This document shows positions 920-62,110 of a stretch of DNA of 64,000 nt, one piece after another. This stretch comes from Octopus sinensis (lineage: Eukaryota). How positions within the stretch are numbered: the stretch's first letter is position 1; every line of letters starts with the position of its first letter. The stretch is taken from NCBI RefSeq assembly GCF_006345805.1, contig NC_043022.1, positions 21,204,001 through 21,268,000 of the forward strand, written 5' to 3'. Below the pieces are notes generated by a model. That model was not told the origin of the DNA. It searched no databases and saw nothing but the letters and a program-made list of their open reading frames with translations. Position numbers and translations under genes: made by a program.

Positions 920-1689
920 CAATGTAAAATATAAACTATGTAAACAAACAAAACGAACGGACGAAATATACCTTTTAAAGAAATCAATTATTACTTTTCT
1001 TAATCGTTTTTTACAACGCAATACTACTAAGAAATATTCAACCTTAAATAACAAGATGACCTTTAGGCGGATTCTCACCCGGGTGGTTGATTAAGATAGC
1101 TAGACACAGTTAACTCTCTTTCTCTCTGTATCACACAGTTTAATGACATACCCTCTTACTCTGGTGTATGCATTAGTGTAATGTAATAGTCCTAATAGTT
1201 ATTATTACACAATACTTGCAGGTAACAATCTTATATACTTCTGTTACATAATAATTCCATTAATATCTTGAATGCCTTTCACAGGAATATGGTAACCTTT
1301 CATATTCATTATATCCCTTCCTTCTCTCTACTACTAGGGAATAAACCCCCCTTGATGGCCAAATTGCCCTCGAATTACGGCCACATCGACTTAAGGAAAA
1401 ATATTGCATTAATAAAATGTAATCCTAGATATACCCTAAATAAGACAGGATGGTCATAACTGGAAATGCTTTTGATCATATACAGGCCAGCATGACCAGA
1501 GTTGACCTGGGGCTAAATACTATCACCATCTCCAACAGCAACGACAGTGACCCTTCGATTGCCAGTCCTTAAGTTCAAGAATTCGCAGATGTTTGACCTT
1601 TGTTTTAAAAAAAATTTTTGAGGACAGATAGCAAAAACAACAATAACAACAATAAACAAAGAATAACAAATAAACACCACTTGCCTTCT

Positions 1690-1778
1690 TAATGTGTGTA
1701 CTGCAAGTAGGCGGACACGCTACTTGAAACCAAGATCACACAGTCCGCAGCTGAGTTATGGTGAGAGGATGTGGGAAG
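1690..1778 (+). other. Candidate LSG1 non-coding 5' UTR exon (start approximate)
   Basis: Strong donor AAG|GTAAGC at 1778/1779; matching polypyrimidine acceptor ttcttctcctcgtgtttttgccag at 3159, 42 nt before the ATG. Confidence 0.45.
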
Positions 1779-1882
1779 GTAAGCACATGTGGGGGAGAAG
1801 CACCAAATAATAAGATTTGTCTGCAGAAGCAAATTTTTTCTACCACTACATCAATAGATTATAATTTACGAATTGAAAACGC

Positions 1883-2537
1883 GGATCTTTTCGGTTTGAA
1901 CGGCAGTTTTTTTCTAGCGGTGTCATATGAAATTGTCACCCATAATTATGACCCTAGAATCGATCTATTGCATTTCAATCTGTTTTAGGGTTAGGGTTAG
2001 GGTTAGGGGTGGGGGGAAGGGTATCTTTTTTCTTCACAAATGTAAATAAACCCAATCTGTTTCTTAACCCTTTCGTTACTGAATTTATTTTGAGATCCTC
2101 AGTGTTTCTTCCAATTATGTTAAATATAACAAAGAATTAAGTAAAATAACATCGTTATCATTAAGCTAGAGTTAGGGACATAAATTGTGACTAAGGTTTG
2201 GTGGAAGGTTTTAATTCAGAACTTTTGAAAACCAGACATTTGTACTAAAGAGCCAAAGCCGGTTTCAGCCGGGTTGGTAACAACGAGGGACATATTCATA
2301 CGGCACAGAATGCTTTTTACCTCAATAGACGTCAGTGATTGTTTGAAATTGCAGAAATTGAAGAAAAACAAACAACAAATATCTTACAAACTATAAAATT
2401 TTCTCAATAAAGCCGAGAGAAAAAGATATTTTATAAACACATTCGGCGATCTTTCATTCTACCAGTATACGAAATTTAAAAGTGCTTGGTTACAAAGAAA
2501 TTATTTTTTAAATCTGCCGTTCAAACCGAAAAGATCC
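1883..2537 (+). mobile_element. TTAGGG-containing MITE with both TIRs, interrupted by a piggyBac-like MITE at about 2068-2281
   Basis: TIR GGATCTTTTCGGTTTGAACGGCAG at both ends; (TTAGGG)4 at about 1985-2008. Confidence 0.85.
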
Positions 2538-3201
2538 CAAACCCTAACCCTAACACCCCATATATATATTTCTCTTTTACTTGTTTCAGTCATTTGACTG
2601 CGGCCATGCTGGAGCACCGCCTTTAATCGAGCAACTCGACCGCGGCACTTATTCTTTTGTAAGCCCAGTACTTATTCTATCGGTCTCTTTTGCCGAACCG
2701 CTAAGTAACGGGGACATAAACACACCAGCATCGGTTGTCAAGCAATGCTAGGGGGACAAACACAGACACACAAACACACACACGCATATATATATATACA
2801 TATATACGACGGGCTTCTTTTCAGTTTCCGTCTACCAAATCCACTCACAAGGCTTTGGTCGGCCCGAGGCTATAGTAGAAGATATATATATATATATAAA
2901 AAAGAAACACTTTCTTGAAATATATCCGATACTTCCGAAGTTACGCCGAAATTTGAAATATCTAGCTCCAGGATGGCCGGAGTCCAATGCCCGAAACAAT
3001 TAAGATACCAGATAATTAAAAATAATTAATAAAAAGAAGCTACTTGTTCGTGTGAGGTCCTAGAGTTAGGCTGACTGTAACATAAGGCTTTTACTATAAA
3101 GTATCTGTAGAGTTATCCACTCTTCGTTAATCAATTTCTTCTCCTCGTGTTTTTGCCAGAAGAAAAAAAGGCTTTAATTGATGTGATTTTATTGTTTAAT
3201 A

Positions 3202-3291
3202 ATGGGCAAGAACGACAAGGGCCAAGTTCTTGGTCGTAGTATTATCAAGGAAAGATTCGCTAAGAAGAAACACGGAGGACAGAAATGTTTT
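3202..3291 (+). CDS. LSG1: LSG1 coding exon 1 (MGKNDKGQVLGRSIIKERFAKKKHGGQKCF)
   Basis: ATG at 3202, donor GTGAGT at 3292, phase 0; LGRSIIK resembles the LSG1 N-terminus. Confidence 0.88.
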
Positions 3292-9200: not shown

Positions 9201-12200
9201 CTGAGGTTGACTTTGCCTTTCATCCTTTCGGGGTCGATTAAATAAGTACCAGTTACGCACTGGGGTCGATATAATTGGATTAATCCGACTAAACATACAC
9301 ACACACACGCACTCTATCTCTCTCTCTCTCATAAACATAAACTTCCTCACTCTGTAATGTGGTTTTGTCCTTTCCTGATGTGGCTGTTATTTTTAGCCAA
9401 TGATGATTTCCTCTTTCAGTGATGTGATTGTGCAGATTGTAGATGCAAGAAACCCTTTACTGTTTCGCTGCCAAGATGTTGAGAAATACGTCCATGAGAT
9501 AGATTCTACCAAAGTCAATGTTATTCTAATCAACAAAGCTGATTTCTTGACAGAGAAACAGAGGTAAATATCCACATTATTACAATTCTTATGGTGTTGT
9601 TGTCCTATAGGCAGTGAGCTGGCAGAAACGTTAGCACACCGGACGAAATGCCGTTACATTCTGAGTTCAAATTCCACCGAGGTCAACTTTGCCTTAAATA
9701 TTTAAACCACCTGAAGAATGACTGTAACTCGAAATTTTAAGAATTGGACAGCCATGAAACGATCGTAGTGTTATATTAATTATCTTTTTTAATAATTTCG
9801 ATATATATTTAAATAATATAAATTAATTAATCTTATGTATTGGCTTAAGTTTTTCATTGTATGATTTGCCTAATAGTGGTTTTATCTCTAATTTAATATA
9901 ATATATATATATATATATATAATGTATATGTATATATAATGTGTGTATGTGTAATATGTTTCTCTCTTTTTCTCAATGCAGGCAATATTGGGCCAAGTAC
10001 TTCTCTGCTGAAGGAGTCAGGGTTGCTTTTTGGTCAGCCATAGAAGAAACTAAGAAACATCAACAGGTAAGGAAATAATATTTTACTCTAATTTAGCTCG
10101 AGAATATAATTCCATGGAACATTCCAGATCACAGTCAAAAACAATTTTTATTGAAAACCGAAAACAGTGAATTGATGATGATGAACTTACGGGATCTGCT
10201 GCGTTTGTGTGTTTCTCCCCTGTGTTCACTGATTTGTAAACAATGTCTCCCTTGCATGTTTTGCTTATTTACCTGATCAATAGACTGGGAGATTATTTAC
10301 GTCATTCGGAAACAGATCGGAGTTAGCTGAGTCATGCAAGCATGGAGATTTAAAAATAATGATGGTGGTGGTGTTGGTAGTGATGGTGGTGGTGGTGATG
10401 GTGGTGATGATGATGATGATACGCAGCCCCATGTTTTGGTAATCAGATGGACCACACAGATTTTTGGCCCCTTCCCTTACCTTCACAAAAATTACACTTG
10501 AATATCTGTTTTGTTATTTATCTATTTACTTATTCTGTTGTGTCTGGGGAGACTAATTCTCTTTTAGTGCTTTATTATTTAACACACTCACCGGTAAAAT
10601 TTCCACTTATTTCTTATTTTTATTTTCTAAAATTTTCATTGTGTCTTGCAACCGGAAATTTTACCGGTGAGTGTGTTAAATAATAAGGCACTAAAAGGGA
10701 ATGAATCTCCCCAGACACAACAAAACATGCTTCAACACACGAACTCACATAAAGAATCTTGCAAACCAAATCCAAAAACGAAATATTTACTTATTCTTTA
10801 TTATTTTATCTTCCAGATGTCCAAGACACAGGAACAAGAAAGGTCAGATATTCCTGAAGAGTTGAAAAAATTGGCAGAAAGTGTACAAGAAAATGCTGCT
10901 GTTGAAGAAGATGCTGTTGCCAGTCCTAACAATTCTACAGTTAAAGATGATGAGAAAGATGGCAATGATGCTGATAACCATGTGGGTGATTCAGTCAAAG
11001 ATCTTGGCAGTTCCTCAGCAGCTGAACCTGATCAAGCTGTTGTGCCTGAATCCACGACCACTGACATCAAGTCTGTAGAATTGGCCCCGGAGAGTCACAG
11101 TTCATGCCATGAAATGCAGTCAAAGACGAAAAGCGGTGTTGAAGAAATGATGAGTACTTTGTGCCTCTCTCCTCCCGATTCTCAAGAAGGCAGCTCAGTT
11201 GAGAAAGACAGTGTGAATACGGACTGTGAAGGAAAAGAAAATGAAGACGACAAAGATGGTGATGATGAGGATGAGGAAGATAGCCACCAGGTAATAACAG
11301 ATGCACAGGATACAAAGACTACTGCTCCATCACAAACCTGTGCCATAGAGAACTCAGCCGAAGTGCTGGACACACACAAGCTGCTAGAATTTCTGAAATC
11401 CCTTCATGTCGGTCCAACATATCAACCAGGTGTAACAACCTTAGGAATGGTAAGTTTAAGTAAGAGTTCTTTATTGTTTTATCATTGTTGTTGTTTTACG
11501 TCTGTTTCTTGATGTCGGCATTGGTTAGATCAGTTGATCTTTCTCAACCATCCTTTATTATGGCAAGGCACTGGCACATTTTATGTGAAAAGTCAAAAGC
11601 AACTGGTATGCATTGATGGGAAATTGTAGCTGTGTGATTAGTAAACTTTGCAACCTTATGGTTTTAGGTTCAATCCCACTGCATGTCATCTTGTATAACT
11701 TTCTTCTATTCAATCATTGGGTTGACCAATGCCTTGTGAGTGATTTTGTTAGACAGAACTGAGTTCAAATTCCGCCAAGGTCGACTTTGCCTTTCATCCT
11801 TTCGGGGTCGATAAATTAGGTACCAGTTAAACACACACAACGCTCGGTCTGGGAATCGAAACCGCGATCCTCCGACCGCGAGTTCGCTGCCCTAACCACT
11901 GGGCCATTGCGCCTCCACTTCTTGTTGCTGCTGCTTCTATTTCCCCAACATCATCATCATATTTTTATGAGTCTTCATCTTTCTTCAGGTTGGTTTCCCG
12001 AATGTCGGTAAAAGTTCCACCATCAACGCCATACTTCAAACTAAGAAGGTCCCAGTTTCTGCTACTCCAGGACGTACCAAACATTTTCAGGTAAAAGCCA
12101 ATTACATAACTGTCATACATTGCATGGGTCTACGTCCACGTGTGAGTTAGTGTATTGCAGTTTTATACATTTATGTAACTTATATTAATATTAGGTTGTT

Positions 12201-15200
12201 TGGAAAATGTCCGATACCTATCTATCTATCCGCTCAGTCGAAGTTGACTCTCGGTCACTCGTTGGATCAGTGTCCTCCAGTCAGTTCTATCCTGGGCCGC
12301 TTCTTTCAGATTGGCTATGTCCATTCCTGTATCACTCTTGATGGTGTCAAGCCAGCAGGTTCTTGGTCGGCCTCTTCCTCTCTTGCCACTGACCATTCTG
12401 AGCATGATGTCCTTCTCCGGGGATTTTCTCCGCATAATATGACCGAAATATGCCAATCTACGCTTGGTGATCCTAGCTTCTATCGACATTTTCGGCCTGA
12501 TCTGCTTAACCCTTTCGTTACTGTATTTATTTTGAGATGTTCTGTATTTCTTTCAATTACTTTAAATATAACAAAGAATTTAGTAAAATAACTTAGTTAT
12601 CATTAAGCTTGTATCAGGAACATAAATTGTGAATAAGGTTTGGTGGAAGATTTTAATTGAAACCTTAAGAAAACAAGACATTTGTACAACAGAGCCAGAG
12701 CCGGTTTGGTAACAAAAGGGTTAAGAACTTCTCCATTGGTATCACGCAAATGGCACCTTTGCCACTGGCATGTAAAAGCACCCATTACACTCTTGGAGTG
12801 GTTGGCATTAGGAATGGCATTCAGCCATAGAAACCATGTCAAATCAGACTGGAGTCTGGTGTAGCCTTTCAGCTTGTCAGCCCTGGTCAAACCATCGAAC
12901 CCATGCCAGCATGGGCAATGGAGGTTAAATGAAAATGATGAACTGATGAATGTGAGTAAATAAAAATTACATTTGGTAGAATAATCTGCATGCTAAAGGG
13001 ATAAAGTGATTTCTTTTGTACCATAAACTATTTACTATTTCTATGGTGCCCCTGCTTACCCTTGATGCCATAAGCACAAACTATTTTGCTTAATGGTTAA
13101 TTCAGCACTGAGTCAAATGGAAATTGTAGTTATGATACCTGTGCCGGTGGCACGTAAAAGGCACCATCCGAATGTGGCCGATGCCAGCGCTGCCTTGACT
13201 GGCTTCTGTGCTGGTGGCGCATGACCTGTTGTGCTTGAGGAGACCTATTGAGTCAAGTACATCAACATCAAATAAATATCAAATGGAAATTGTAGTTGAG
13301 ATACCTGTGCCGGTGGCACGTAAAAAGCATCATCGGAATGTGGCCGATGCCAGTGCCGCCTTGACTAGCTTCTGTGCTGGTGGCACGTAAAAAGCACCAA
13401 CCGATTGTGACCGATGCCAGCCTCCCCTGGCACGTAAAAAGCACTCACTACACTCTCGGAGTGGTTAGCGTTAGGAAGGGCATCCAGCTGTAGAAACACT
13501 GCCCGATCAGACTGGAGCCTGGTGCAGCCTCCTGGCTTCCCAGACCCCGGTCGAACCATCCAACCCGTGCTAGCCCGGAAAGCGGACGTTAAACGATGAT
13601 GATGATGATGATGAGTCTAACAGTTCAAATTGAATAAAATAGACATTGTGTTTTTTTTGTTTTTTCCTTTCAGACGCTGTTTGTTGATAAAAGTGTGATG
13701 CTGTGTGATTGTCCAGGGCTTGTCTTTCCTTCATTCGTTTCAACTAAAGCTGACTTGATTATCAATGGAATATTACCGATTGATCAGTTGCGAGACCATG
13801 TCCCACCTGTCTCTTTGGTAAGTCTCCATCTAATTCCTGTTCTTCTCTTCCTCTCTCTCTCTCTCTCTCCCTTGTTCGCTTAAATATATTCTCTCTTCCT
13901 TAAGGCAGCGAGCTGGCAGAAACATTAGCACGCCAGGCGAAATGCGTAGCCATATTTCATCTGCCGTTACGTTCTGGGTTCAAATTCCGCCGAGGTCGAC
14001 TTTGCCTTTCATCCTTTTGGGGTCGATAAATCAAGTACCAGTTACGCACTGGGATCAATGTAATCGACTCAATCCATTTGTCTGTCCTTGTTTGTTCCCT
14101 CTGTGTTTAGCCCCTTGTGGGTAGTAAAGAAATAGGTATTTCGTCTGCTGTTATGTTCTGAGTTCAAATTCCGCCGAGGTTGACTTTGCCTTTCATCCTT
14201 TCAGGGTCGATTAAATAAGTACCAGTTACGCACTGGGGTCGATGTAATCAACTTAATCCGTTTGTCCCCTCTGTTTTTAGCCCCTTGTGGGTAGTAAAGA
14301 AATATATATTCACTCTTCCTATATACTTCTCTCTTTCCCCTTCTCTCTCTCTCTCACTATATTCCTCTCTTTCTCACACTTCTTTGCCTTGCAAGTTACT
14401 TGCAAGTGACCCTACTGGTGCCATGTATAAACCATCCAGTCCACACTGTAAAGTGGTTGGCATTTGGAAGAACATCCAGCTGTGAAAACCATGTTAAAAC
14501 TGACCTCACCTGTGCTGGTGGCACATAAGAAGCACTCAGTCCACTCTGCAGAGTGGTTGGTGTTAGGAAAGGCATCCAGAGATAACAAGAACTGTTATCT
14601 GTTGGAGTAAAAGAACTGGCAAAAAAAGGTGGCTTCAAACAGTGCAACACAATGGTCTCTACTTTGAATGCTTGGCTTCATTTCTTGTAACTTGATGAAT
14701 ACAGGAAATAAGGTAGCAAAATATTGCAAAATTTTTGTCTCAACAATGATTTATGAGCAGGAACTTCAAATTCCTGTGGCTGCCAAACTAGTTTACTGGT
14801 ACCTTGTGCAGTTCACTATTATTAATATACTTATATCATTTATACTAATGCGCGTAAAAAGCACCCACTACACTCTCGGAGTGATTGGTGTTAGGAAGGG
14901 CATCCAGCTGTAGAAACTCTGCCAAATCAAGATTGGAGCCTGGTGCAGCCATCTGGTTAACCAGCCCTCAGTCAAAACAGTCCAACCTATACTACGGCAT
15001 GTAAAAAGCATCCACTACACTCTTGGAGTGGTTGATGTTAGGAAGGGCATCCAGCTGTAGAAACTCTGCCAAATCAAGATTGGAGCCTGGTGCAGCCATC
15101 TGGCTTGCTAGCCCTCAGTCAAACCGTCCAACCCATGCTATGGCATGTAAAAGCACCCACTACACTCTCGGAGTGGATGGCATTAGGAAGGGCATCCAGC

Positions 15201-18200
15201 TGTAGAAACTCTGCCAAATCAAGATTGGAGCCTGGTGCAGCCATCTGGTTTGCCAGCTCTCAGTCAAAATCGTCCAACCCATGCTAGCATGGAAATTGGA
15301 CGTTAAACGATGATGATGATATACTGTTATTTCTGTTTTATTTAATCACTCACTCACTCACTTGCTTGATGGGACTGGGGTTATAACAAGAGTAATGGCC
15401 TCAGAGGTGTCCTCATGTGTAGTGCTGACCAGGTCCACCAGTGTTGGCAGTCCTGTGCCAGCCCTTCTACATCCTCCAAGATAATCTTGTTGGCTGGGGG
15501 CATGCAGGGGTCTGTTCTGATATTGGGCAGTCTGCTTTCTTTCGGTTGTTCTAACAAGTCGAGGGTTCTTCTTGACAAGTTGTTGGCTCTCCACGGAATA
15601 GTCAGATGATGGGGCTGCCACCTTGTCTGTTTGTCTACTATCTATCTGTCTGTCTGTCTGTCATCTATCTGTGTACCTATTTCTTTATTACCCACTAGGG
15701 GCTAAACACAGAGGGGACAAACAAGGACAGACATAGGTATTAAGTCGATTACATCGACCCCAGTGCGTAACTGGTACTTAATTTATCGACCCCGAAAGGA
15801 TGAAAGGCAAAGTCGACCTCGGCGGAATTTGAACTTAGAATGTAACGGCAGACGAAAAACCGCTAAGCATTTCACCCGGCATGCTAACATTTCTGCCAGC
15901 TCTATCTGTGTACCTGCCCGCTTACCTGCTTCTTCATATATCCATCTATATATCTGACTGCACGCTTTCCTTTCACTTGCTTTATTTACCCATTCATCCA
16001 TCCATCTACCCACCTTCCCTTCCTCGCTTCTTGTTTACTGATACATGACTCCCCCCACTTTGTCTTTTCTCAGGTCTGCCAGCAAATTCCGAGGACAATT
16101 CTTGAAGACATCTATGGTATTATGATACCTAAACCCGACGAATACGATGACCCAGATCGTCCACCCACAGCCTTAGAACTTCTCAATGCTTATGGCTGTA
16201 AGTATACACCTCACTTCATTCAACAGGTTAACGTAAGGTCTGGTTCTGATGGCACCATTTGATCTCTGTTACTCCTTGTTTGCCTTTTTGTGATGTAATT
16301 GTTGGGAGGAAGGGCAGTATACTTGATCTCCGTAAGACATCCGAGGGCAATGGTGCTGGGTTCAGTCCCACTGCATGCCACCTTGGGCGAGTAACTTCTA
16401 CCATAACCTCGGGCCAACCAAAACTTGTGAATGGATTTGCTACACGGAAATTGAAAGAAGCCTGTCGTGTCTGTATGTATATATACATGTGTGTGTGTGT
16501 GTGTGTGGTTGTATTAGTCTCCCTACAATCGGTGTTGGTGTGTTTATGTCCCTTAGGGTTGATTCGTTCAACTAAAATTAAGGTGGTGCTCCAGCATGGC
16601 CACATGGAAAAGGACCATTTTTCAGTGAATTTCGTTATTTTTCCTCTCTGTCTGCGTGGGTTATTTCGAGTATTTTGTTTTTGTCTGGGAGTCTCTTCTT
16701 ATAGTAGAACAAATAGTTAAGGTTCTTTGGCTGCTATTTCTAAACGTCGGTATGTGGTAAAGCAAATCTTTGCTCAACCCTAATTATAATTATACTCATA
16801 ATTATAAAATATTGTTTAAGTTTACCGAAAAATGGTCCTTTTTCATGCCGAATTCTACTTGGTGGAATTATTAATTACTAGTTAATTAATTAATTTTACC
16901 TTTTATTATTATTGCCGCATCGACTGGCTTCCGTGCCGGTGACACGTAAAATGCACCAATCAGACCGTTGCCAGCCTCGCCTGGCACCTGTGCGGGTGGC
17001 ACGTAAAAAGCACCCACTACACTCACGGAGTGGTTGGCGTTAGGAAGGGCATCCAGCTGTAGAAACATTGCCAGATAAGACTGGAGCCTGGTGCAGCCTT
17101 CTGGCTTCCCCAGTCGAACCGTCCAACCCATGCTAGCATGGAGAACGGACGTTAAACGATGATGATGATGATATATATACACACACACACATACGACAGG
17201 CTCCTTTCAGTTTCCGTCTACCAAATCTACTCAAGGGTTTGGTTGGCCTGAGGCTATAGTAGAAGACACTTGCCCAGGGTGCCATGCAGTGGGACTGAAC
17301 CTGGAACCATGTAGTTCGTAAGCAAGCTACTTACCACACAGCCACTCCTACGCCTCACCCCGAATCTATGCGCTCATCGGGATGCTCTGGTTTTTATAGT
17401 GGCCACCACTGATTTTCTGCAAGACTTCGAGTGACTGAGCGAAGGAACTAGCTGGGCTCCCCGACGTGTGTCATGGTTAAAGGGACATAACTGTATAAGG
17501 GAGATAAATCCGGGCATGGGTCGCTGTTCCGTTCCCCCTGCTCTTCTAAATTATCGCATTTGTTGTATTGTTTCTATCATTTCTGTTTTAATGTTCTTCT
17601 TCTTTCTGTCTTTCAGACATGCGTGGCTTCATGACTCCAAGTAGTGTCCCAGATTGTCCAAGATCTTCTCGTTATATTCTTAAGGATTACGTCAATGTAT
17701 GTATAATGAACAATGTATATACTTTTTCATTTGACGGCCTCTGATTTTGTGTAGTTTTACTTGTTTTCTTTCATTTATTTTTTTTTTATTTTCTTTATTT
17801 TTTTATTCTCTTACTTTTTTCAGTCATTTGAGTGTGGCCATGCTGGATCACCGCATTGACACCAGGACTTATTTTGGATCTTTTCGGTTTGAACGGCAGT
17901 TTTTTCTAGTGGTGTCATATGAAATTGTCACCCATAATTATGACCCTAGTATCAATCTATTGCATTTCAATCTGTTTTAGGGTTAGGGTTGGTTAGGGGT
18001 GGAGGGATGGGCATCTTTTTTTCTTCAGAAATGTAAATAAACCCAACCTGTTTCTTAAACGAGGGACATATTCATATGGCACAGAATGTTTTCACCTCAA
18101 CAGACGTCATTGATTGGTTGAAATTGCAGAAATTGAAGCAAAAAAACAACAAGTATCTTACAAACTATAGAATTTTCTGAATAAAGCCAATAGAAAAAGA

Positions 18201-19452
18201 TGTTTTATAAACATTCTACCAGTATATGAAGTTTAAAAGCGTTTAGTTACGTGGAAATTATTTTAAAAAACTGCCGTTCAAACCGAAAAGATCCCTTATT
18301 TCTTAAGCCTAGTACTTATTCTATAAGTCTCTTTTGCCGAATTGCTAAGTTACATAATCACACCAACATTGGTTGACAAGCAGTGATAGGTGGGGACAAA
18401 CATTTACACAGCGAGCTTCTTTCAGTTTCCATCTACCAAATCCACTCGTAAGACTTTAGTTGGCTCAAGGCTATAGAAGAAGACACTTGCTCGAGTTACC
18501 ACATAGTGGGATTGAATTCTGAACGTTGTGGTTGGGAAGCAAGCTTCTTACCACACAGCCATGCTTGCACATACACACACACACACAGATGCGATGGGCT
18601 TCTTTCAGTTTCCATCTAACAAATCCATTCAAGGCTTTGGACGGCTCAAGGCTGTAGTGGAAGACACTTGCCCAAGGTGCCACGCAGTGAGACTGAACCC
18701 AGAACCATGTGGTTGGGAAGCAAACTTCTTACCACACAGCCACACCTGCACATATATGATTATTTTTTTGTCTTTTGATAACCTGTGTATCCATTAACTT
18801 TTACTTTAAATCTCCCATATTAGACTGCGGCCATGCTGTGGCACCGCCTTGAAAAGTTTTAGTCAAACAAATCACCCCAGAGTCTTTGTTATTTTTTTTC
18901 TAAACCTGGAACCCAGGTGGAGGCTTAACGTTAGATTAGAGGGGCCCAGGTCTGAGAGGGTTAAGGAACCATATAATGGCTTGCTCACTCATTATTTATG
19001 CTGTAGTCGCAGTAGTAGTTGTAGTAGTAGTCGCTGTAGTAGGTGACAGTGTAGTTTTAAGTTTTCTGTAGAAAGCTTTGCTTACTATGTCTCTGTTACT
19101 ATGTCTCTTTGTACTTTTTCCAGTTTTATTATTATTATTATTATCATTATTACTCTTTTACTCTTTTACTTGTTTCAGTCATTTGACTGCGGCCATGCTG
19201 GAGCACCGCCTTTAGTCGAGCAAATCGACCCCAGAACTTATTCTTTGTAAGCCTAGTACTTATTCTATCGGTCTCTTTTGCCGAACTGATAAGTTACGGG
19301 GACATGAACACACCAGCATCGGTTGTCAAGCAATGTTGGGAGGACAAACACACACACACAAACACACATATATATATATATGTACATATATACAACAGGC
19401 TTCTTTCAGTTTCCGTCTACCAAATCCACTCACAAGGCTTTGGTTGGCTCGA

Positions 19453-19494
<42 letters not shown>

Positions 19495-22400
19495 GTTTTT
19501 TTTTTAAATTTCATTAATATACCTTCTGGTATTTGACAGGGAAAGCTGTTGTACTGTCATCCCCCTCCTGGGGTCTTAGCTGAAGATTTCAGCGATGCTC
19601 TGGAGACATATTCCAAAAAAGTGAAGAAGGAAACTTCTGAAAACTCGCAGGTAAGATATGGGTAATTTGTGAAATGTGTTTAATTCAAAATTTTCTGCCA
19701 CCCTGGGTATGGAGGAGAAGGAGGAGATTTGAGGCTGGGAGGGAGATGTTAACGAGAGTTGAGGTTGTGTCATTGAAGATGGTATATAGAGTTTGGGCGG
19801 TGAGCTGGGGGAATCGTTAAGACGCCGGGCGAAATGCTTAGCGGTATTTCGTCTGCCGTTACGATCTGAGTTCAAATTCCGCCAAGGTCGACTTTGCCTT
19901 TCATCCTTTCGGGGTCGATAAATTAAGTACCAGTTACACACTGGGGTTGAAGTAATCAACTTAATCCGTTTGTCTGTCCTTGTTTGTCCTCCCTGTGTTT
20001 AGGTGTTTTTGCTCAATAAACACTCACAACGCCCGGTCTGGGAATCGAAACCGTGATTCTACAACTGCGAGTCTGCTGCCCTAACCACTGGGCCATTGCG
20101 CCTCCACACACACGTATATATATATATATATATATACATACTCTTTACTCTTTTTCTTGTTTCAGTCATTTGACTGCGGCCATGCTGGAGCACCGCTTTT
20201 AATCGAGCAACTCGACCCCAGTACTTATTCTTTGTCAGCCCAGTACGGGGACATAAACACACCAGCATCGGTTGTCAAGCAATGCTAGGGGGACAAACAC
20301 AGACACACAAACATACACGCACACACAAACACACACTTTTTATAGATATATACATATATACGACGGGCTTCTTTCAGTTTCCGTCTACCAAATCCACTCA
20401 CAAGGCTTTGGTCGGCCCGAGGCTATTGTAGAAGACACTTGCCCAAGGTGCCACGCAGTGGGACTGAACCCGGAACCATGTGGTTGGTAAAGAAGCTACT
20501 TACCACACAGCCACTTCTGCGCTTATATATACATATATAGATCAAGGAGCAAATGAAGATATAAACCTTGGAGGGATAAAAATATTTGTGATTAGACTGG
20601 ATATAGTATTAATATTATACAAATCGAGAGAGAAGATGAAGATAAGATTAATAAAAGTTTATTACCCTCCATCTTCCCTCTTGTTTTGTTACACACACAC
20701 ACACATATTTGTCTTAATTATTTTTAACTTTAAATTAATTTTAATTTTTATTTACTTTCAGCTGAGACATTCTCGTCAAAAGATGCTTGATTCCTCTTTT
20801 TTCTCTAATGTAAGTTATTTGACTTTTAAATTTCCATTTCTGTTTTTGTATATGTGTGTGTGTGGTGTGTGCGTGCATGCGTGTGTGTGTGTGTGTGTGC
20901 ATCCATGCATGCATGGTGAGCTATTGGTATGGTTGTTGACATCATTTTTTTGTTTTTTGTGGTTGAACTGTAACCAGTGAAGTTTGCTTGTAGTGGAGGC
21001 ACATGGCCTAGTGGTTAGAGCAGCAGACTCGCGGTCGAGGGATTGCGGGTTCAAATCTCAGACTGGGCGGTGTGTGTGTGTTTATGAGTGAAACACCTAA
21101 GCTCCACACGGCTCCGGCAGAAGGTAATGGCGAACTTCTGCCAACTCTTTTGCCACAACTTTCTCTCACTCTTTCCTCCTGCATCTTGCAGCTCACCTGC
21201 GACGGACCGGCGTTCCGTCCAGGTGGGGAACCTATACGTCAAGGAAATCGGGAAACCGGCCCTTATGATCCAGGCGTGGCTCGAGAAGGAACAAACAACA
21301 AGTGGAGTTTGTTGACCTCTGATAGCATATTGGCCACTAGCTATGAGCTTTTGAGCTCTTCAGGAAAGAAATACTCCTTACTTGAAAAACAGTTAAGTGT
21401 TGGTGACAGGAACTGTATCCCACTGCAAAACTCTTACCTTAAATAATTTATCATCATTGTGCCAGTAGCACATAAAAAGCACCATCCGAACGTGGCCGAT
21501 GCCAGCCCCGCCCCGACTGGCTTCTGTGCCGGTGGCACATAAAAAGCACCATCCGAACGTGGCCGTTGCCAGCGCCGCCTTGGCTGGCTTCCGTGCCGGT
21601 GGCACGTTAAAAGCTCCAACCGATCGTGGCCGATGCCGGACCTCCCTGGCACCTGTGCAGGTGGCACGTAAAAAACACCCACTACACTCGCGGAGTGGTT
21701 GGCATTAGGAAGGGCATCCAGCTTTAGAAACTCTGCCAGATCAGACTGGAGCCTGGTGCAGCCCCTGGCTTCCCTGACCCCAGTCGAAGCATCCAGCCCG
21801 TGCTAGCGCGGAAAACGGACGTTAAACGATGATGATGATGATGATGATTAGCCATTCTAGTATGGAAAAATACGTGTGTTGTGTGTGTGTTTGAAATATG
21901 TGTGTATATGTTTGTGCTTCCTTATCTTGACATTGTATGATAGCTGTAAATGAATGTCACTGTCATACAAGCAGCATCATTCATCATCATTATCCAGTGT
22001 TTTAAATCTGGGCTTTGTCCCCGTTAATGGGGGTAGCTGGATCTACCTCAATATCATAGCAACTGCAGTAGGCAGGTGCAGCCCACCTCAACCTTTGGGC
22101 TGGCTGGTGCCCTTTCTCCTTTGCTATCATGAGGGTTATTTTGGAACTGGATTTTCTACAGGGAGCATGCCTTTGCTTACCCCCAACTTCAGTTTTGATA
22201 CATGAGTGATCCCGAGACCAAGCCTTCCACCACGGCTTTTAAGAAATGTGGTGGAAAACTAGCTCAGGAAGGCAGGGATGCTACTCCCGAGATCCCTTTT
22301 TGAGCACTCCTACTTTCATCTGTGATATTCTGCAAGAACATCTCTGGCCATGGGGTAAAATTACCTATGTTTGGAAACAGGTGAAACTTACAGTTGGGAA

Positions 22401-23239
22401 CAGGAAGGGCATCCAACCATAAAACTAGTTCACAATAAGCTCCATCTGACCCATGCTAAAATGAAAAAATAGATGCTAAATGATGATGATGATGATGAGG
22501 AGGAGGCGGGGAGTATGATTTCACATAAAAAATCTTGCAAACCAAATGCGTAAATGAAATTTTAGCTGTAACCATTGCCATTATCATCCTCTTCATCATC
22601 ATTTAATGACTGTTGCCCATGCTGGCATGGGTTGGATGGTTTGACTAGGGCTGTCAAGCTGAGGGGCTGCACTAGATTCCAGTCTGAATTGGCATGGTTT
22701 CTATGGCTGGATGCCCTTCCTAACATGCCAGACACTTTATAGAGTGTGCTGGGTACACTTTACATGGCACTGCATTGATGCTTTTACACAGCGCCAAAGA
22801 ATAAAAAAATTATCTACTGTCATGGAAAATGTAGCTAGAAATGCAGAACTATCAGAGTAATGGGCATTCAAAAAAGTATGTATGTATATAAATGTATGAA
22901 TGAAGTCTTTAAGGTTTAACATTCAAATCAAGGAAGTGCAATAATAATGAGCTTTAGCACAGATAAACCTTATGTGAAAGACAAGCCTGTGCTCTCTTTT
23001 CCAATATCTCCTGTATTGAATGACACTGACCACATCTGATTTCCCGTTCATTGCAGAATTCTGCAAGCTATGTATATTCAAAGGGCAAGAGAGGAGTCAA
23101 AGGTTATGCACGACTAGATGGACTGAAGCAGGTTGGCTTGTCAGATGGTGACCCAAACAAGAAACCAGGCAAGAAGCACTACAATAAGAACAAGAAAGAG
23201 AAACTGAGGCGGGTGTATCACCACCTGGATGAACACTGA
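3202..23239 (+). CDS. LSG1: Large subunit GTPase 1 homolog (circularly permuted YlqF/YawG-family GTPase, 60S maturation/NMD3 release); 15 coding exons, 2166 nt, 721 aa
   Basis: Exons joined by hand at GT-AG boundaries with consistent phases. The protein contains HTSELNDGYEWGRLNLASVTEQSNLEDFLATAELAGTEF, TPYEKNLDFWRQLWRVLERSD, DARNPLLFRC, G4 NKAD, G1 GFPNVGKS, G2 TPGRT, G3 DCPG and C-terminal KKHYNKNKKEKLRR, all typical of LSG1. Confidence 0.96.
3722..4190 (-). mobile_element. Inverted, rearranged copy of the TTAGGG-containing MITE in LSG1 intron 1
   Basis: Reverse complement of the same body, followed by a re-inverted partial segment at about 4090-4190. Confidence 0.75.
4401..4527 (+). CDS. 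LSG1: LSG1 coding exon 2 (VHTSELNDGYEWGRLNLASVTEQSNLEDFLATAELAGTEFTA)
   Basis: Acceptor tcttcttcag, donor gtaaat; highly conserved LSG1 block. Confidence 0.96.
4731..4851 (+). CDS. LSG1: LSG1 coding exon 3 (EKLNVKFIDRP...LLRIPR)
   Basis: Acceptor ttttggcag, donor gtttgt, phase 1 to 2. Confidence 0.94.
5625..6445 (+). mobile_element. SINE family A array (tRNA-like head ggcggcgagctggcagaa...gttcaaattcc, repeated ~180-bp bodies)
   Basis: A/B-box-like head; more than 20 related copies in the window, e.g. 9117, 13901, 15676(-), 19796, 39305, 40672, 51589, 59741, 63242, 63856. Confidence 0.85.
6553..6639 (+). CDS. LSG1: LSG1 coding exon 4 (RPDWDSNTTPEELAAKERELFLLWRKSLS)
   Basis: Acceptor ctctgcag, donor gtaagt. 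Confidence 0.95.
6807..7026 (+). mobile_element. piggyBac-like MITE with TTAA target site duplication
   Basis: TTAA-CCCTTTCATTAC...GTAACGAAAAGG-TTAA. Confidence 0.8.
7255..8275 (-). mobile_element. Degenerate mariner transposase relic (boundaries approximate)
   Basis: HQDN...HPPYLPDIAPSDYHLF (mariner YSPDLAPSD motif) and a WVPHKL-type motif, with stops and frameshifts. Confidence 0.85.
8295..8381 (+). CDS. LSG1: LSG1 coding exon 5 (LQAEDHVTLTPYEKNLDFWRQLWRVLER)
   Basis: Acceptor ccaaaag, donor gtaact; conserved TPYEKNLDFWRQLWRV. Confidence 0.95.
9420..9563 (+). CDS. LSG1: LSG1 coding exon 6 (SDVIVQIVDARNPLLFRC...INKADFLTEKQ), G4 motif
   Basis: Acceptor ctctttcag, donor gtaaat. Confidence 0.96.
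9704..9773 (+). ncRNA. Minimal type I hammerhead ribozyme motif in LSG1 intron 6 (Penelope-like element remnant)
   Basis: cac-CTGAAGA (9711-9717), stem II atgactgt/acagccat, GAAA, palindromic CGATCG, TA, gtg; GUA cleavage triplet ends at 9767. Confidence 0.7.
9982..10066 (+). CDS. LSG1: LSG1 coding exon 7 (RQYWAKYFSAEGVRVAFWSAIEETKKHQQ), G5 region
   Basis: Acceptor caatgcag, donor gtaagg. Confidence 0.94.
10536..10722. mobile_element. Fold-back element/MITE with ~69-bp inverted arms
   Basis: 10536-10604 is the reverse complement of 10654-10722 with few mismatches. Confidence 0.8.
10817..11449 (+). CDS. LSG1: LSG1 coding exon 8 (211 aa acidic linker ending VTTLGM)
   Basis: Acceptor atcttccag, donor gtaagt, phase 0/0; lies within ORF 10646-11512. 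Confidence 0.93.
11989..12090 (+). CDS. LSG1: LSG1 coding exon 9 (VGFPNVGKSSTINAILQTKKVPVSATPGRTKHFQ), G1 and G2
   Basis: P-loop GxxxxGKS; acceptor ttcttcag, donor gtaaaa. Confidence 0.97.
12226..12745 (-). mobile_element. RTE-clade LINE 3' fragment split by a MITE
   Basis: TNGEVL|KQIRPKMSIEARITKRRLAYFGHIMRR...GKRGRGRPRTCWLD...AAQDRTDWR. Confidence 0.85.
12510..12720 (+). mobile_element. piggyBac-like MITE with TTAA TSD, inserted in an RTE fragment
   Basis: TTAA-CCCTTTCGTTAC...GTAACAAAAGGG-TTAA. Confidence 0.85.
13110..13612 (+). mobile_element. Retroposon family C with ~60-bp internal tandem repeats and (GAT)n tail
   Basis: ggttggcgttaggaagggcatccagctgtagaa...ggacgttaaacgatgatgat; copies at about 4918(-), 14852, 16915, 21460, 27000(-), 48780, 54435, 58232. 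Confidence 0.8.
13674..13817 (+). CDS. LSG1: LSG1 coding exon 10 (TLFVDKSVMLCDCPGLVFPSF...GILPIDQLRDHVPPVSL), G3
   Basis: DCPG motif; acceptor cctttcag, donor gtaagt. Confidence 0.97.
15345..15625 (-). mobile_element. Degenerate RTE-like LINE 3' end with (AGTG)n tail
   Basis: LEDVEGLAQDCQHW-type C-terminus followed by a short tandem tail. Confidence 0.5.
16074..16197 (+). CDS. LSG1: LSG1 coding exon 11 (VCQQIPRTILEDIYGI...PTALELLNAYG)
   Basis: Acceptor ttttctcag, donor gtaagt. Confidence 0.95.
16603..16847. mobile_element. MITE with ~28-bp imperfect TIRs
   Basis: catggaaaaggaccatttttcagtgaattt versus aagtttaccgaaaaatggtcctttttcatg. Confidence 0.6.
17617..17696 (+). CDS. LSG1: LSG1 coding exon 12 (YMRGFMTPSSVPDCPRSSRYILKDYVN)
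   Basis: Acceptor tctttcag, donor gtatgt. Confidence 0.95.
17876..18294 (+). mobile_element. Complete ~420-bp MITE with 29-bp TIRs and internal telomeric repeats, inserted into a SINE
   Basis: GGATCTTTTCGGTTTGAACGGCAGTTTTT...AAAAACTGCCGTTCAAACCGAAAAGATCC; flanks cttatttt and cttatttc (7-8 bp TSD). Confidence 0.88.
19540..19650 (+). CDS. LSG1: LSG1 coding exon 13 (GKLLYCHPPPGV...)
   Basis: Acceptor tttgacag, donor gtaaga; conserved GKLLYCHPPP. Confidence 0.95.
20762..20809 (+). CDS. LSG1: LSG1 coding exon 14 (LRHSRQKMLDSSFFSN)
   Basis: Acceptor actttcag, donor gtaagt, phase 0/0; DxxFF motif. Confidence 0.85.
23057..23239 (+). CDS. LSG1: LSG1 terminal coding exon (...KPGKKHYNKNKKEKLRRVYHHLDEH*)
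   Basis: Acceptor cattgcag, TGA ending at 23239; conserved basic C-terminus. Confidence 0.95.
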   Translation, partial: NSASYVYSKGKRGVKGYARLDGLKQVGLSDGDPNKKPGKKHYNKNKKEKLRRVYHHLDEH

Positions 23240-23294
23240 GGTCTTGCCAAGAGGAAATGTTATTAGTGTGAGAAATAGATGCATTATATGTACA

Positions 23295-28477: not shown

Positions 28478-29380
28478 CTAAAACCACAATTGTAGGGGAA
28501 AGTTTATAGTCTTATACATGACTCACAGCACTCTCAACAGTGATGAATTAGTTAATAAATTTAATCAATCAATCAATCAATCAATGTTGTTATCGTGCAA
28601 TGCCTGTGCAAGAAGATTTTTTTAAAGTGAGGAAAGGCTGTCAATCCCACTCACTAAGCAACAGCAGCCATAATCCGAAAAGAAGAACAAGTCAACATCA
28701 TCGGTAACCACTGAGTCGCAGGTTTTATGTCGGAGTTATCCCAGTTACCTGAGTTGCTTTCTCCTAGAAGGATGCCCTGAAAGGCTAGGGGCCCTTCACT
28801 CCCAATGGTGTAACCGCGCGACCGGGTATTCAGTCCGATTATTTCTATGTCCCCGCACGTGATACAGCCTTAAGCTTGAGAAGATTGATATAAGGGGAAA
28901 AAAACACGATGTATATATATATAAAAAAAACATTGATATACAAAATATACATACATACATACATACATACATGCATACATACACACATACACACACACAG
29001 ACATCATATATATGAACTCTTTTATTCTTTTATACGTTTCAGCTCTAAGGCTGTGGCCATGATGGAGCACTGCTAGCGAAAATTTTAGCAAGAACCTCTA
29101 ACATAAGACCTGGAAAGAATTGAACTTCCTCTGTCTAGGTTCATATCTCCCTTGTCTTTATCCACAAGATTATCAAGACACCATCTCTCTCTCCCCCGCT
29201 CTCTCTATATATGTATGTATATATTTTTTATATATATGTATATGTGTATGTATGTATATATATTTATATATATATGTATATATGTATGTATATATATTTA
29301 TTATTATTATTATTGATAATAATAATAATGATGATTATAATAATAATAATGATAATAATAATAATGATAATAATAATAAT

Positions 29381-30192
29381 AAAGCCCTGACCCATCAATG
29401 GCTAATGGCCTCTGGCTTAAAATCCGAAACAGAGGGATTTATCATAGCAGCTCAAGATCAATGCCTACCAACAAGAAACTACCAGACCAACATATTAAAG
29501 AACGGCAGTAGCCCAACATGTCGTGTATGTCAACAACAAAATGAAACCATTGATCATGTTGTCTCCAAATGCAGTTTTCTAGCGCCTACAGAGTATCTCA
29601 ACAGGCATGATAGAGCTGCACAATATATTCACTGGGTAATTTGCAAAACCCTGGATTTGCCCCATGAAAAAACTGGTGGGAACACAAACCACCTCTAGTG
29701 CTTGAAAATGACCACATCTCACTCCTCTGGAACTTCACCATTCAAACTGACAGAAAGATCGATGCAAATAGGCCAGACATCATATTGAAAGACTTCAGAC
29801 AAAGAACATGCCTCCTCATTGATATGACTGTCCCAATCGATATAAACGTATCTGTCAAGACCTACCAGAAACTGAGGAAATATAAAGATCTGGAAATAGA
29901 AATCATCAAAACGTGGAACCTGTTGTCATAGAAACCCCAAAATGGCAGAAATTCAAAAGATAGTGCTCATAGGAACTGCTCATATCCTACGCAAAATACT
30001 TTCTATGTAATCTCAAGTTTTAAAACAAACATAATTTTTTTTTAGACATTCACTAGTACAACACAAAAAACCCCCCTCCAAATATATGGCATTCTAGGCA
30101 TAACAACAACGTGAACTTCCAACCTGTTGTCTCTTGAGGTCTCTGGGTGAGACTTGGAGCCAACTTGTACAAATATAAAGCAAAAGTCAAAC

Positions 30193-30654: not shown

Positions 30655-31215
30655 TTTTTTTTTCTTGTTTCAGCTCAGAGCTGCGGTTATGCTGATGCAC
30701 CGCCGTTTTGTGCTACACTTTTATTACTAAGAGCCTCCTCTAATATGTGGCACTTGGTGAAGAATGGAGTTTGATATAGCTACCCTCATTTGCACCTCTT
30801 GCCGTGAGGTAGGTTCATCTGGGACTCTCGACCGGAAGATGTCCGGCTTTGATTTAAAAACCGCTACATCTATTTTGTGCAAGTTCCTCAGACTCTTTGG
30901 GAGAATATTAAAATGCTGTGGGCCCTTGAAACCCAGGCTGTTGCAGTAGCTGGTCCTGGAGCGTGATGACATTGCTGGGATCTTTGGCACTATGCAGTGT
31001 CGTCCCGTTCTAGCATTGGTGTAGCTTACAATGCCAAAATTTGGCACAATTCCTTCCAGGATCTTCCAGACATATATTACTGCATACCTCTCCCAACTTC
31101 TCTCCAGGGAGTAGAGTCTTAGCTGTTTCAACCTTTCCCAGTAGCTGAGCTGTTGCAAAGAGACGATCTTCTTTGTGAATCTTCTATGGATTGCTTGAAG
31201 GTTCGCTGTTAATTT
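30655..31215 (-). mobile_element. CR1/L2-group LINE 3' fragment with short 3' UTR
   Basis: LSYWERLKQLRLYSLERSWERYAVIYVWKILEGIVPN...FNILPKSLRN, typical ORF2 C-terminus. Confidence 0.8.
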
Positions 31216-31332
31216 TGCACGTGGTTTATAAGTGACAGTTATGTTACTAGTATCGAAAGATCGCCCTTTGAAGTATTGTAGTCGAACATATATATATATA
31301 TATATTATATATATATATTATATATATATATA

Positions 31333-37655: not shown

Positions 37656-38256
37656 AAGGTGGCAAGTTGGCAGAAACGTTAGCACGCAGGGCGAAATGCT
37701 TAGCGGAATTTCATCTGCTGTTACATTCTGAGTTCAAATCTGCCAAGGTCAACTTTGCCCTTCATGCTTTCGGAGTTGACAAATTAAATACCAGTTACGC
37801 ACTGGTGTCGATGTAATCGACTTAATCCCTTTGTCTGTCCTTGTTTGTCCCCTCTGTGTTTAGCCCCTTGTGGATAGTAAAGAAATAGGTATTTCATCTG
37901 CCATTATGTTCTGAGTTCAAATTCTGCCGAGGTCGACTTTGCCTTTCATCCTTTTGGAGTCGATAAATTAAGTACCAGTTACGTACTGGGGGTTGATGTA
38001 ATCGGCTTAATCCCTTTGTCTGTCCTTGTTTGTCCCCTCTGTGTTTAGCCCCTTGTGGGTAGTAAAGAAATAGGTATTTCATCGGCCATTACGTTTTGAG
38101 TTCAAATTCTGCCGAGGTCGACTTTGCCTTTCATGCTTTCGGGGTCGATAAATTAAGTACCAGTTACGCATTGGGGTCGATGTAATCGACTTAATCCCTT
38201 TGTCTGTCCTTGTTTGTCCCCTCTGTGTTTAGCCCCTTGTGAGCAATAAAGAAATA
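37656..38256 (+). mobile_element. SINE A trimer with 18-bp TSD
   Basis: agaaacctaaagaagctt at 37638-37655 and agaaacctacagaagctt at 38257-38274. Confidence 0.85.
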
Positions 38257-44663: not shown

Positions 44664-44714
<51 letters not shown>

Positions 44715-45094
44715 TAGATAGGTTTGGTAATAAATTTGCTTGATCACTGCTGCTTTGGGTTTAGACAGCTCCATCAACAACTACAGTGATTGATACTAAT
44801 TGATCCAGGCTCAACCTGATCTAGTAAACCTATGATTTAAAGTGTTCCAACCATGACCATACTGACTTTTATTCAGAAATCATACTGTGTTTAAGACTGC
44901 TTTATCTTGATGTGTCCCTTGCTTTGTGTGTATATACATATATGTGTGTGTGCATCAGTGAAGGCTTGTAGCTTGGTGGTTAGGGTATTCGACCCCTGAT
45001 CGTAAGGTTATGAGTTCAATTCCCAGCCATGTGTTGTGTCCTCAAGCAAGACACTTTATTATTACATAGGTTGAAATCATCATCATTATTATTA

Positions 45095-45126
<32 letters not shown>

Positions 45127-45480
45127 GATAGGTTTGGTAATAAATTTGCTTGATCACTGCTGCTTTGGGTTTAGACAGCTCCATCAACAACTACAGTGAT
45201 TGATACTAATTGATCCAGGCTCAACCTGATCTAGTAAACCTATGATTTAAAGTGTTCCAACCATGACCATACTGACTTTTATACAGAAATCATACTGTGT
45301 TTAAGACTGCTTTATCTTGATGTGTCCCTTGCTTTGTGTGTATATACATATATGTGTGTGTGCATCAGTGAAGGCTTGTAGCTTGGTGGTTAGGGTATTC
45401 GACCCCTGATCGTAAGGTTATGAGTTCAATTCCCAGCCATGTGTTGTGTCCTCAAGCAAGACACTTTATTATTACATAGG
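44652..45480. repeat. Tandem duplication of ~415 bp bounded by (ATT)n
   Basis: 44652-45070 and 45071-45480 are near-identical. Confidence 0.9.
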
Positions 45481-45492
45481 TTGAAATCATCA

Positions 45493-45538
<46 letters not shown>

Positions 45539-45861
45539 ATAGGTTTATTACACAGTTATTTCACATTGGGGGGGGGGCGGATAAGTCAATTACATCAACC
45601 CCAGTGCTTGACTGGTTCTTATTTTATCGACTCCAAAAAGATGAAAGGCAAAGTTAACCTCAGCAGCATTTGAACTCAGAACATAAAACCAAGGTTGACT
45701 TTGCCTTTCATCCTTTCAGGGTTAATAAAATAAGTAATCAGTTGAGCACTGGGGTCAATCAACTAATCCCTGGCCCCAAAATTGCTGGCTTTGTGTCCAA
45801 ACTTGAAAGCATGATTATTGTTGTTGTTGTTGACTGAAACAAGTAAAAGAGAGAGTAAAGA

Positions 45862-45905: not shown

Positions 45906-46312
45906 TTTACATACCTCATACATATGTATACATTACATACATACACCCTCACACACACACAAGCACACATATATACACACACACACATATATGTATATAC
46001 ATTCATACATATATCTACTCATATATCTATACTATATATGTAGTATATATATATGTAGGTATGTAGGTATGTATGTATACATATATATATATATATATAT
46101 ATAATGTGAAATAGAAAGATGAATAATCTTGTTGTAGATTAATCAAAAGTTAACCGATACCTTAGTAGCAAAAATCACAGCAGTAAACAGCACGGTTGGA
46201 GGTACAACCATCTGGCGTTGCAACCGTGCGTTGGTGCGGATAATTGAAATTAAAACATTATTGGTGAATTGAAGAAATGGAGCTGAACGCAGATTGAACA
46301 GAAATCGTTTTA

Positions 46313-46401
46313 TTTCATTCTACACGTGTTTCGAAAGGCACAAATTACCAAAATCCGATTGAATAATGGGACCATATTGTGTCTTTCTCTTCAGGAAGAA
46401 A
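46313..46401 (-). ncRNA. Type I hammerhead ribozyme motif, left arm of palindrome
   Basis: Reverse complement of the 46695-46783 motif. Confidence 0.75.
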
Positions 46402-46694
46402 AAAGGAAATCCGTTAGAGAAACAAAAACAGAACAGAGCGGAGCAAAAACCAAATCGACCTATGCTCCTAAGAGCCCATGGCGAAACTGTTTATCAGTGT
46501 ATGCTGAGAACCGGTGGCTGAAGAATTCTACAGGTCAGGCATCGGTCAATCCGATGCCTGACCTGTAGAATTCTTCAGCCACCGGTTCTCAGCATACACT
46601 GATAACAGTTTCGCCATGGGCTCTTAGGAGCATAGGTCGATTTGGTTTTTGCTCCGCCTCTGTTCTGTTTTTGTTTCTCTAAAGGATTTCCTTT

Positions 46695-46783
46695 TTTCTT
46701 CCTGAAGAGAAAGACACAATATGGTCCCATTATTCAATCGGATTTTGGTAATTTGTGCCTTTCGAAACACGTGTAGAATGAAA
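46695..46783 (+). ncRNA. Type I hammerhead ribozyme motif, right arm of palindrome
   Basis: ttc-CTGAAGA (46702-46708), stem II gaaagacacaa/ttgtgcctttc, GAAA (46764), CACGTG, TA, gaa. Confidence 0.75.
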
Positions 46784-46841
46784 TAAAACGATTTCTGTTC
46801 AATCTGCGTTCAGCTCCATTTCTTCAATTCACCAATAATGT

Positions 46842-46875
<34 letters not shown>

Positions 46876-61504: not shown

Positions 61505-62110
61505 AAGGCGGCGAGCTGGCAGAATCGTTAGCACACCGGGCAAAATGCTTAGCAGTATTTCGTCTGCCGCTACGTTTTGAGTTCAAATTCCGCCGAGGTC
61601 GACTTTGCCTTTCATCCTTTCAGGGTCGATTAAATAAGTACCAGTTACGCACTGGGGTCGATATAATCGACTTAATCCATTTGTCTGTCCTTGTTTGTCC
61701 TCTCTGTGTTTAGCCCCTTGTGGGTAGTAAAGAAATAGGTATTTCGTCTGTCGCTATGTTCTGAGTTCAAATTCCGCCAAGGTCGACTTTGCCTTTCATC
61801 CTTTCAGGGTCGATTAAATAAGTACCAGTTACGCACTGGGGTCGATATAATTGACTTAATCCATTGTCTGTCCTTGTTTGTCCTCTCTGTGTTTAGCCCC
61901 TTGTGGGTAGTAAAGAAATAGGTATTTCGTCTGTCGCTATGTTCTGAGTTCAAATTCCGCCAAGGTCGACTTTGCCTTTCATCCTTTCAGGGTCGATTAA
62001 ATAAGTACCAGTTACGCACTGGGGTCGATATAATCGACTTAATCCGTTTGTCTATCCTTCTTTGTCCACCCTGTGTTTGGCCCCTTGTGGGTAGTAGAGA
62101 AGTGGAAGTG
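61505..62110 (+). mobile_element. SINE A trimer with 15-bp TSD
   Basis: ggtgtcaaggaaaca at 61490-61504 and 62111-62125. Confidence 0.85.

Follow-up and report, generated by a model that had tools for sequence, protein, structure and literature searches.

This locus raises the question of how a palindrome with a hammerhead ribozyme motif on each strand came to lie in a (TA)n tract of Octopus sinensis, and whether it is an element of its own. The window is the whole stretch of DNA analysed, 64,000 nt of contig NC_043022.1, and positions refer to it unless a reference copy is named. A first-pass annotation, made from the letters of the window, described a 589-bp palindrome with a 5-nt spacer and proposed that it may be a non-autonomous ribozyme element. 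The arms are as described: 46254-46545 and 46551-46842 are reverse complements of each other with three differences (two 1-nt indels and one substitution), none of which falls inside the ribozyme. The limits had to be moved, as the left copy continues for another 150 nt to 46104. The full insertion measures 739 bp (46104-46842) and has (TA)n on either side, at 46081-46103 on the left and at 46843-46868 on the right. Five nucleotides do lie between the arms, but they are element sequence of the left copy and not a separate spacer; the inversion junction (46546-46551) comprises these 5 nt and a 1-nt overlap at 46551.

Both arms derive from the 3' end of a larger element and are truncated on their 5' side; the unit of this element measures about 3.66 kb, and its natural copy L055:1465-5123 serves as reference. 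The long-end arm (46104-46551, minus strand) equals reference positions 3211-3659, and the inverted short-end arm (46551-46842, plus strand) corresponds to 3217 to about 3508. The two 3' ends that are fixed in the family bound a tail of about 150 nt, which is present in one arm only (46104-46253, minus strand). The insertion is young, because its long-end arm is 99.3% identical to L045 and 99.0% identical to L053. Within an insertion of this family, the two arms resemble each other more than they resemble other copies: here they differ at 1 of 274 positions, and none of 98 comparisons with other arms was equally close. Beyond the arms, the flanks are no inverted copies of each other. On its own, the locus is unremarkable transposon debris, genuine but of a kind commonly left by this known class of element.

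The surroundings contain one recognised host gene, a circularly permuted GTPase gene on the plus strand (10631-23260; exons at about 10.8, 12.0, 13.7, 16.1, 17.6, 19.5 and 23.2 kb), which we take to be LSG1-like from its motifs. An insertion inside this upstream gene was ruled out, since the last exon ends near 23.2 kb. The earlier observation that no RT or GIY-YIG ORF of the element is present nearby is correct: the 71 ORFs scanned beyond 23.3 kb gave a single Pfam match, which is unrelated. This match, zf-RVT, falls in a fragment at 29.1 kb (29102-29928, plus strand); this fragment and another one at 30727-31317 (minus strand) stem from two unrelated retrotransposons of the LINE type. A SINE-like repeat of 170-185 bp forms short tandem arrays at 5603-6445, 37708-38256 and 61555-62101. 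A 410-bp direct tandem duplication (44675-45546; 98% identical, (ATT)n-bounded) lies 600 nt to the left of the insertion.

One arm was searched against the 2.72-Gb genome for copy number and linkage to Penelope ORFs, as the first-pass annotation had proposed, and both were found: there are many copies, and the longer ones lead upstream into a single ORF. The search gave 1,379 first-look candidates, and all 42 matches listed are 98-100% identical. A 27-mer over the 3' half of the ribozyme has 3,187 exact matches genome-wide, against 0 for the control. Among ORF-matched loci, the complete 895-aa frame is present in 3 of 30, and two more frames are unbroken but cut at the 5' end. The suspected Penelope-like origin is hence borne out, the arm being the 3' end of a Penelope-like family with RT and a putative endonuclease. 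The idea of a separate non-autonomous element does not hold, as the inversion point varies per copy and the arms derive from the 3' terminus of a family that is autonomous and has intact frames elsewhere in the genome. L055 and L057 show the same insertion architecture on two small contigs, with the frame intact in one and broken in the other; assembly errors may account for some of the family's frameshifts. Older subfamilies are represented by 20 loci picked by ORF similarity (66-91% DNA identity), 17 of which have the hammerhead. A literature search outside subscription papers, Repbase and Dfam returned no description of this family, of its long/short rule or of a Penelope cap G, and the family may already be in some repeat library. 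For an octopus, 31 Penelope-like families with recent activity are reported in the available part of PMC13282606.

The single ORF encodes a telomerase-like RT with YRDD at residue 353. The model of the protein (P0001) has a pLDDT of 80, and telomerase RT accounts for nine of its top ten fold matches; Pfam gave nothing for P0001 at E<0.01, and a PDB sequence search likewise nothing useful. At the C-terminus, P0001 displays GIY-YIG-type motifs (NAVY...YVG...R...CNLC..E...N), with a strand-strand-helix at 776-811 in the model, and one of 12 homologs aligned with this domain matches Pfam GIY-YIG (E 0.003). CNLC (855) and CPH (883) surround E (861) and N (874), a CxxC and CxH arrangement with no CCHH. 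DKT instead of DKG is found at residue 122, as in the Hydra clade, and an N-terminal RWL at 37 aligns to RWK/RWR of homologs. The CxCX5C linker zinc finger is missing: one Cys (742) is left, and the linker is replaced by a disordered S/N-rich stretch. The motif is also absent in all 11 older-subfamily frames printed, whereas elsewhere it occurs in 67 of 75 endonuclease-bearing rows of A3 (regex). Because of this loss, the element is labelled Hydra-like and not a strict Hydra member. Two disordered insertions in P0001 (488-556 and 632-763, the second S/N-rich) recall the Asn-rich inserts of rotifer Penelope elements described in the available part of PMC3846280. The family further shows the traits of endonuclease-bearing Penelope elements, namely pseudo-LTRs with a hammerhead inside, partial tandems, inverted 5'-truncated copies and a tail on one end. 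The Naiad clade was ruled out on account of the canonical hammerhead and the position of the putative endonuclease at the C-terminus.

Each arm holds the full type I hammerhead motif that had been annotated: CUGAAGA, stem II, GAAA, the palindromic ACACGUGU, GUA and a UUC/GAA stem I. The plus-strand motif spans 46699-46778 (CUGAAGA at 46702-46708) with a predicted cut after 46775, based on motif, covariation and folding. An identical copy on the minus strand, assigned by motif and folding, spans 46318-46397 (CUGAAGA from 46394) with a predicted cut after 46321. Stem II has 11 bp with one mismatch and a 33-nt loop, and its pair probabilities are 0.88-0.99. The proposed search with a hammerhead type I model failed to recover the motif above threshold: Rfam RF00163 (Hammerhead_1) gave 14.8 bits against a gathering value of 34 (E 0.65), and a scan of 5 kb (44-49 kb) yielded no hammerhead and only sub-threshold microRNA hairpin matches. 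The 45-nt model cannot accommodate the long stem II. Given the low score, the ribozyme call rests on motif, covariation and family context. Across 17 distinct sequences, selected from loci chosen by ORF with a pattern that needs the core (core invariance is thus partly by choice), 90.3% of the cells of the named structure are paired, versus 28-49% when the structure is slid. Double changes in hammerhead pairs number 13 versus 5.7 in shuffles; pairs changed on both sides (5 versus 4.2) and further pair types do not exceed the shuffles.

Stem III is self-complementary throughout, with CG, UA or UG at its centre. In the folded monomer, stems I and III are populated only at 0.01-0.03 (stem III about 0.01), and the 8-mer self-duplex has a predicted -10.3 kcal/mol. 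These modelled figures would fit a dimer and agree with the earlier expectation, and with the available part of PMC4209133, that the palindromic stem III likely needs one. It had also been expected that any transcript contains one ribozyme plus its antisense. This is valid for read-through RNA, for which a -576 kcal/mol hairpin is predicted with a near-perfect 290-bp duplex that buries the ribozyme. It does not extend to the element's own transcripts, whose likely starts (46607 on plus, 46488 on minus) face outward; RNA from these starts would carry one ribozyme and no antisense arm.

To describe the family-wide pattern, 70 insertions on contig C1, located behind the first 100 listed 27-mer matches, were mapped on the reference; sampling by an exact 27-mer slightly favours two-armed insertions. 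Inverted repeats had been named as a Penelope feature, and 56 of the 70 insertions are indeed head-to-head inversions. Their 3' ends are long plus short in 52 of 56, short plus short in two, and with one other end in two, while long plus long does not occur (binomial p 8e-14 on 52/54). The long end maps to reference 3655-3659 and the short end to 3497-3511, about 150 nt apart. The 14 non-inverted copies comprise nine long-ended and five short-ended ones. In the older subfamilies, 11 of 23 hammerheads have their end 53-60 nt past the cut and eight 210-219 nt past it; one ends 81 nt past the cut, and three are without an assigned end. Outer 3' ends abut (TA)n in 118 of 125 cases. A full hammerhead on both strands is found in 25 of the 70 insertions (within 700 nt in 16), which extrapolates to about 800 double-hammerhead inversions among about 2,200 insertions genome-wide.

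Inversion junctions are spread over reference 219-3616, and none of the 70 insertions shares the junction of the locus. Of 47 simple inversions, 21 have a short-end arm that extends 5' beyond the long-end arm by more than 10 nt, and in 15 it is the long-end arm that extends further by that margin. The remaining 11 are near-symmetric (within 10 nt), compared with 2.9 by permutation, and their offsets are negative in five and zero in six, with none at +1 to +10; the locus has an offset of -6. In eight of the 47, the long arm stops inside the tail and has zero overlap with the other arm. A second hotspot of cDNA 5' ends, likely an RT stall, lies at L055 reference 3564-3575, at the 3' foot of a predicted tail hairpin (L033, L036, L096, L125, L128, L133, L134, L140, L171 and L181). 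At L033:4579-5664, a whole inverted insertion is tandemly duplicated with its (TA)n flank. About 900 nt separate another inverted insertion (L004:2700-3293, minus strand) from a frame with tandem C2H2 zinc fingers.

The 5' ends of copies pile up at a single A, which corresponds to 46607 in the right arm (CAGT) and to 46488 in the left arm. This A is accompanied by a conserved ATGGGCTC block (46606-46625 on plus; the reverse complement at 46470-46489 on minus) that is kept in older subfamilies and presumably resembles the initiator consensus. Given the 5' ends of other copies and the extra G described below, the A is likely the transcription start of the element. The first 100 of 229 listed matches that have non-element sequence upstream of this A were counted by hand for the nucleotide immediately preceding it: 52 have the templated C, and of the 48 non-templated cases 38 have G, 9 have A and 1 has T. 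Some of the Gs also have a template in the partner arm. Copying a cap leaves an extra G. The 38 G-arms are divided into 19 short-ended, 18 long-ended and one other, and seven of the short ones have a partner confined to the tail. At the locus, both arms reach about 60 nt upstream of the start site, which makes the downstream pseudo-LTR of a long transcript their likely template. Older subfamilies (L151-L158) have three box-like motifs 60-125 nt upstream of the hammerhead, which we assume to be TGACGTCA-, CCAAT- and TATAAA-like and which are degenerate in the young family.

Ends exactly at the ribozyme cut site are rare: eight were counted by hand among the first 100 of 166 listed matches, which scales to about 13 of about 3,200 copies, compared with about 105 of 1,562 at the start site. 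With one true boundary per 100 at a control site, there may be a small excess. Cleaved RNA as main template was ruled out, given the few cDNA 5' ends at the cut and the many at the start site; these counts inform on templates only and not on self-cleavage. A single contig, from a run that is presumably RNA, spans the element 3' end through the cut site and is uninformative on expression.

Taken as a whole, the locus holds two 5'-truncated copies of a young Hydra-like Penelope element, inserted head to head in a (TA)n microsatellite, probably by priming at two sites on one capped RNA. Cleavage of both target strands would leave two ends, each priming reverse transcription on the element's capped RNA at one of two fixed sites that lie about 150 nt apart. 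The two cDNAs would then be joined by microhomology. The combination of one long and one short end in nearly every inversion suggests two separate priming events on one capped RNA. A single RNA, or a single source gene, may have been the template for both arms; their similarity could alternatively stem from gene conversion or assembly polishing. The extra G would be a copy of the cap. Since short and long arms both carry it, a capped sense RNA on which two cDNAs were target-primed fits better than self-priming on an antisense template. The hammerhead may be a passenger of the pseudo-LTR, kept by selection in the source lineage. Its cleavage is predicted to require dimerisation or assistance by a protein, and the motif is likely dispensable for making insertions; the palindrome itself is likely a by-product without a function of its own. 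We give about even credence to the fuller picture, in which a two-ended RT-endonuclease complex would use two fixed sites on one capped sense RNA with both cDNAs able to run off the cap, would target (TA)n without a linker zinc finger and would have left several hundred ribozyme-bearing hairpins in the genome. According to the available part of PMC11167929, both target strands are cut and extended in vitro, two RT start sites bound the tail and the ribozyme is dispensable. PMC3846280, in the part available, proposes that inverted copies arise by self-priming on an antisense template. Judged from sequence patterns, two-site priming would agree with the former, on Anolis, and disagree with the latter as a general route.

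The main competitor, which we consider unlikely yet worth retaining, is a fold-back: the cDNA snaps back or the RNA primes itself, the short end results from endonuclease resolution, and asymmetry is due to later central deletions. The near-symmetric junctions speak for it and against two-site priming, as their offsets are zero or favour the long arm and never the short arm, as snap-back predicts. The Gs that have a template in the partner arm likewise count against two-site priming. The locus belongs to this class, with a 5-nt loop from the long arm and nearly identical arms, and the near-symmetric excess holds outside the start-site hotspot (7 of 32 versus 1.2). Several patterns are difficult to reconcile with a fold-back. 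The arms do not overlap in eight of 47 inversions, and the short-end arm is the longer one in 21; the extra G, the mark of a capped template of sense polarity, is equally frequent on both types of arm. The short end also terminates five of the 14 non-inverted copies, and L073 combines a 3.4-kb short-end arm with a long-end arm that begins at the start site. Perfect palindromes are a known artefact of long-read assembly, and the junction of the locus was found in none of the short-read contigs among the matches listed. An assembly fold-back is nevertheless highly improbable here: the arms stop at the two biological ends of the family, the flanks beyond them differ, and head-to-head joints of the family are present in short-read contigs of three runs (at least 15 among those listed).

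Equally improbable is the idea that the host has co-opted the palindrome for regulation, either as dsRNA or through self-cleavage. Read-through RNA would give the near-perfect duplex mentioned above, and some 800 double-hammerhead inversions are extrapolated for the genome, but the copy is very young (99% identical to other copies) and the one host gene recognised in the window ends some 23 kb upstream. A self-standing palindromic ribozyme element, retrozyme- or MITE-like and copied as a unit, is scarcely more credible and is largely refuted. No ORF is nearby, the likely promoter block in both arms could allow transcription of short copies and their mobilisation in trans, and the available part of a preprint describes animal retrozymes as Penelope derivatives (bioRxiv 10.64898/2026.07.22.740005). 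The scatter of junctions, with that of the locus in none of the sampled insertions, contradicts copying as a unit, and there is no head-to-tail array, unlike in retrozymes. Two-site priming on a capped RNA is accordingly the reading that we prefer.

The value of these observations is mechanistic and lies with the family rather than with the locus. The available part of PMC8557442 treats the origin of Penelope tandem and inverted repeats and the targeting of microsatellites as an open question. Thousands of young copies allow a count-based test of how Penelope inverted repeats form. The CxCX5C linker zinc finger was proposed to direct (TA)n targeting, and this family inserts in (TA)n without it. 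The lost linker and the 150-nt tail set this family apart; opposite-strand hammerhead pairs were already known. Moreover, the family supplies natural intact frames and exact start, priming and cut coordinates, which make the model directly testable.

The closest known relatives are the elements of the Hydra clade, including Hydra-1_Obim, as described in the available part of PMC8557442. Shared features are a single ORF with RT followed by an endonuclease (putative in the octopus family), the DKT, FDI and MG-YRDD motifs, CxxC and CxH around a conserved E and N, a canonical hammerhead near the 3' end, the (TA)n target and inverted 5'-truncated copies. The octopus family differs from the clade by RWL instead of RWK, the loss of the CxCX5C linker, a tail of about 150 nt instead of 30-40 bp, and an 11-bp stem II with a 33-nt loop. 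Identity with Hydra-1_Obim was ruled out by length (709 aa and 2.5 kb versus 895 aa and about 3.66 kb), protein and hammerhead sequence, as compared by eye. The Anolis Poseidon element PAc (PMC11167929, available part) resembles the family in its two RT start sites bounding the tail, its AT-rich target cut on both strands, and its hammerhead in a pseudo-LTR, and its main template is uncleaved RNA. It belongs to another clade, and its start sites lie inside the ORF, whereas the ends of the octopus family lie upstream of the ATG. With the animal Penelope hammerheads of PMC4209133, as far as its available text goes, the octopus motif shares the type I core, long stem II, palindromic stem III and a predicted dimer requirement; its stem II is longer, its loop is longer with an inner helix, and it remains below the Rfam threshold. 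The same source reported opposite-strand hammerhead pairs 100-700 bp apart in Schistosoma in 2014.

Non-LTR retrozymes are likewise non-coding and Penelope-related with a type I hammerhead, but they are head-to-tail arrays of a fixed unit, whereas the octopus locus is a head-to-head truncation product of a family with variable junctions; no head-to-tail series of units, each with a hammerhead, was found. In LINE-1 twin priming, two target ends prime cDNA on one RNA, which results in a 5' inversion. The second primer of LINE-1 lands internally at positions that vary, and LINE-1 arms do not overlap, whereas in the octopus family both sites would be fixed and the arms often overlap fully.
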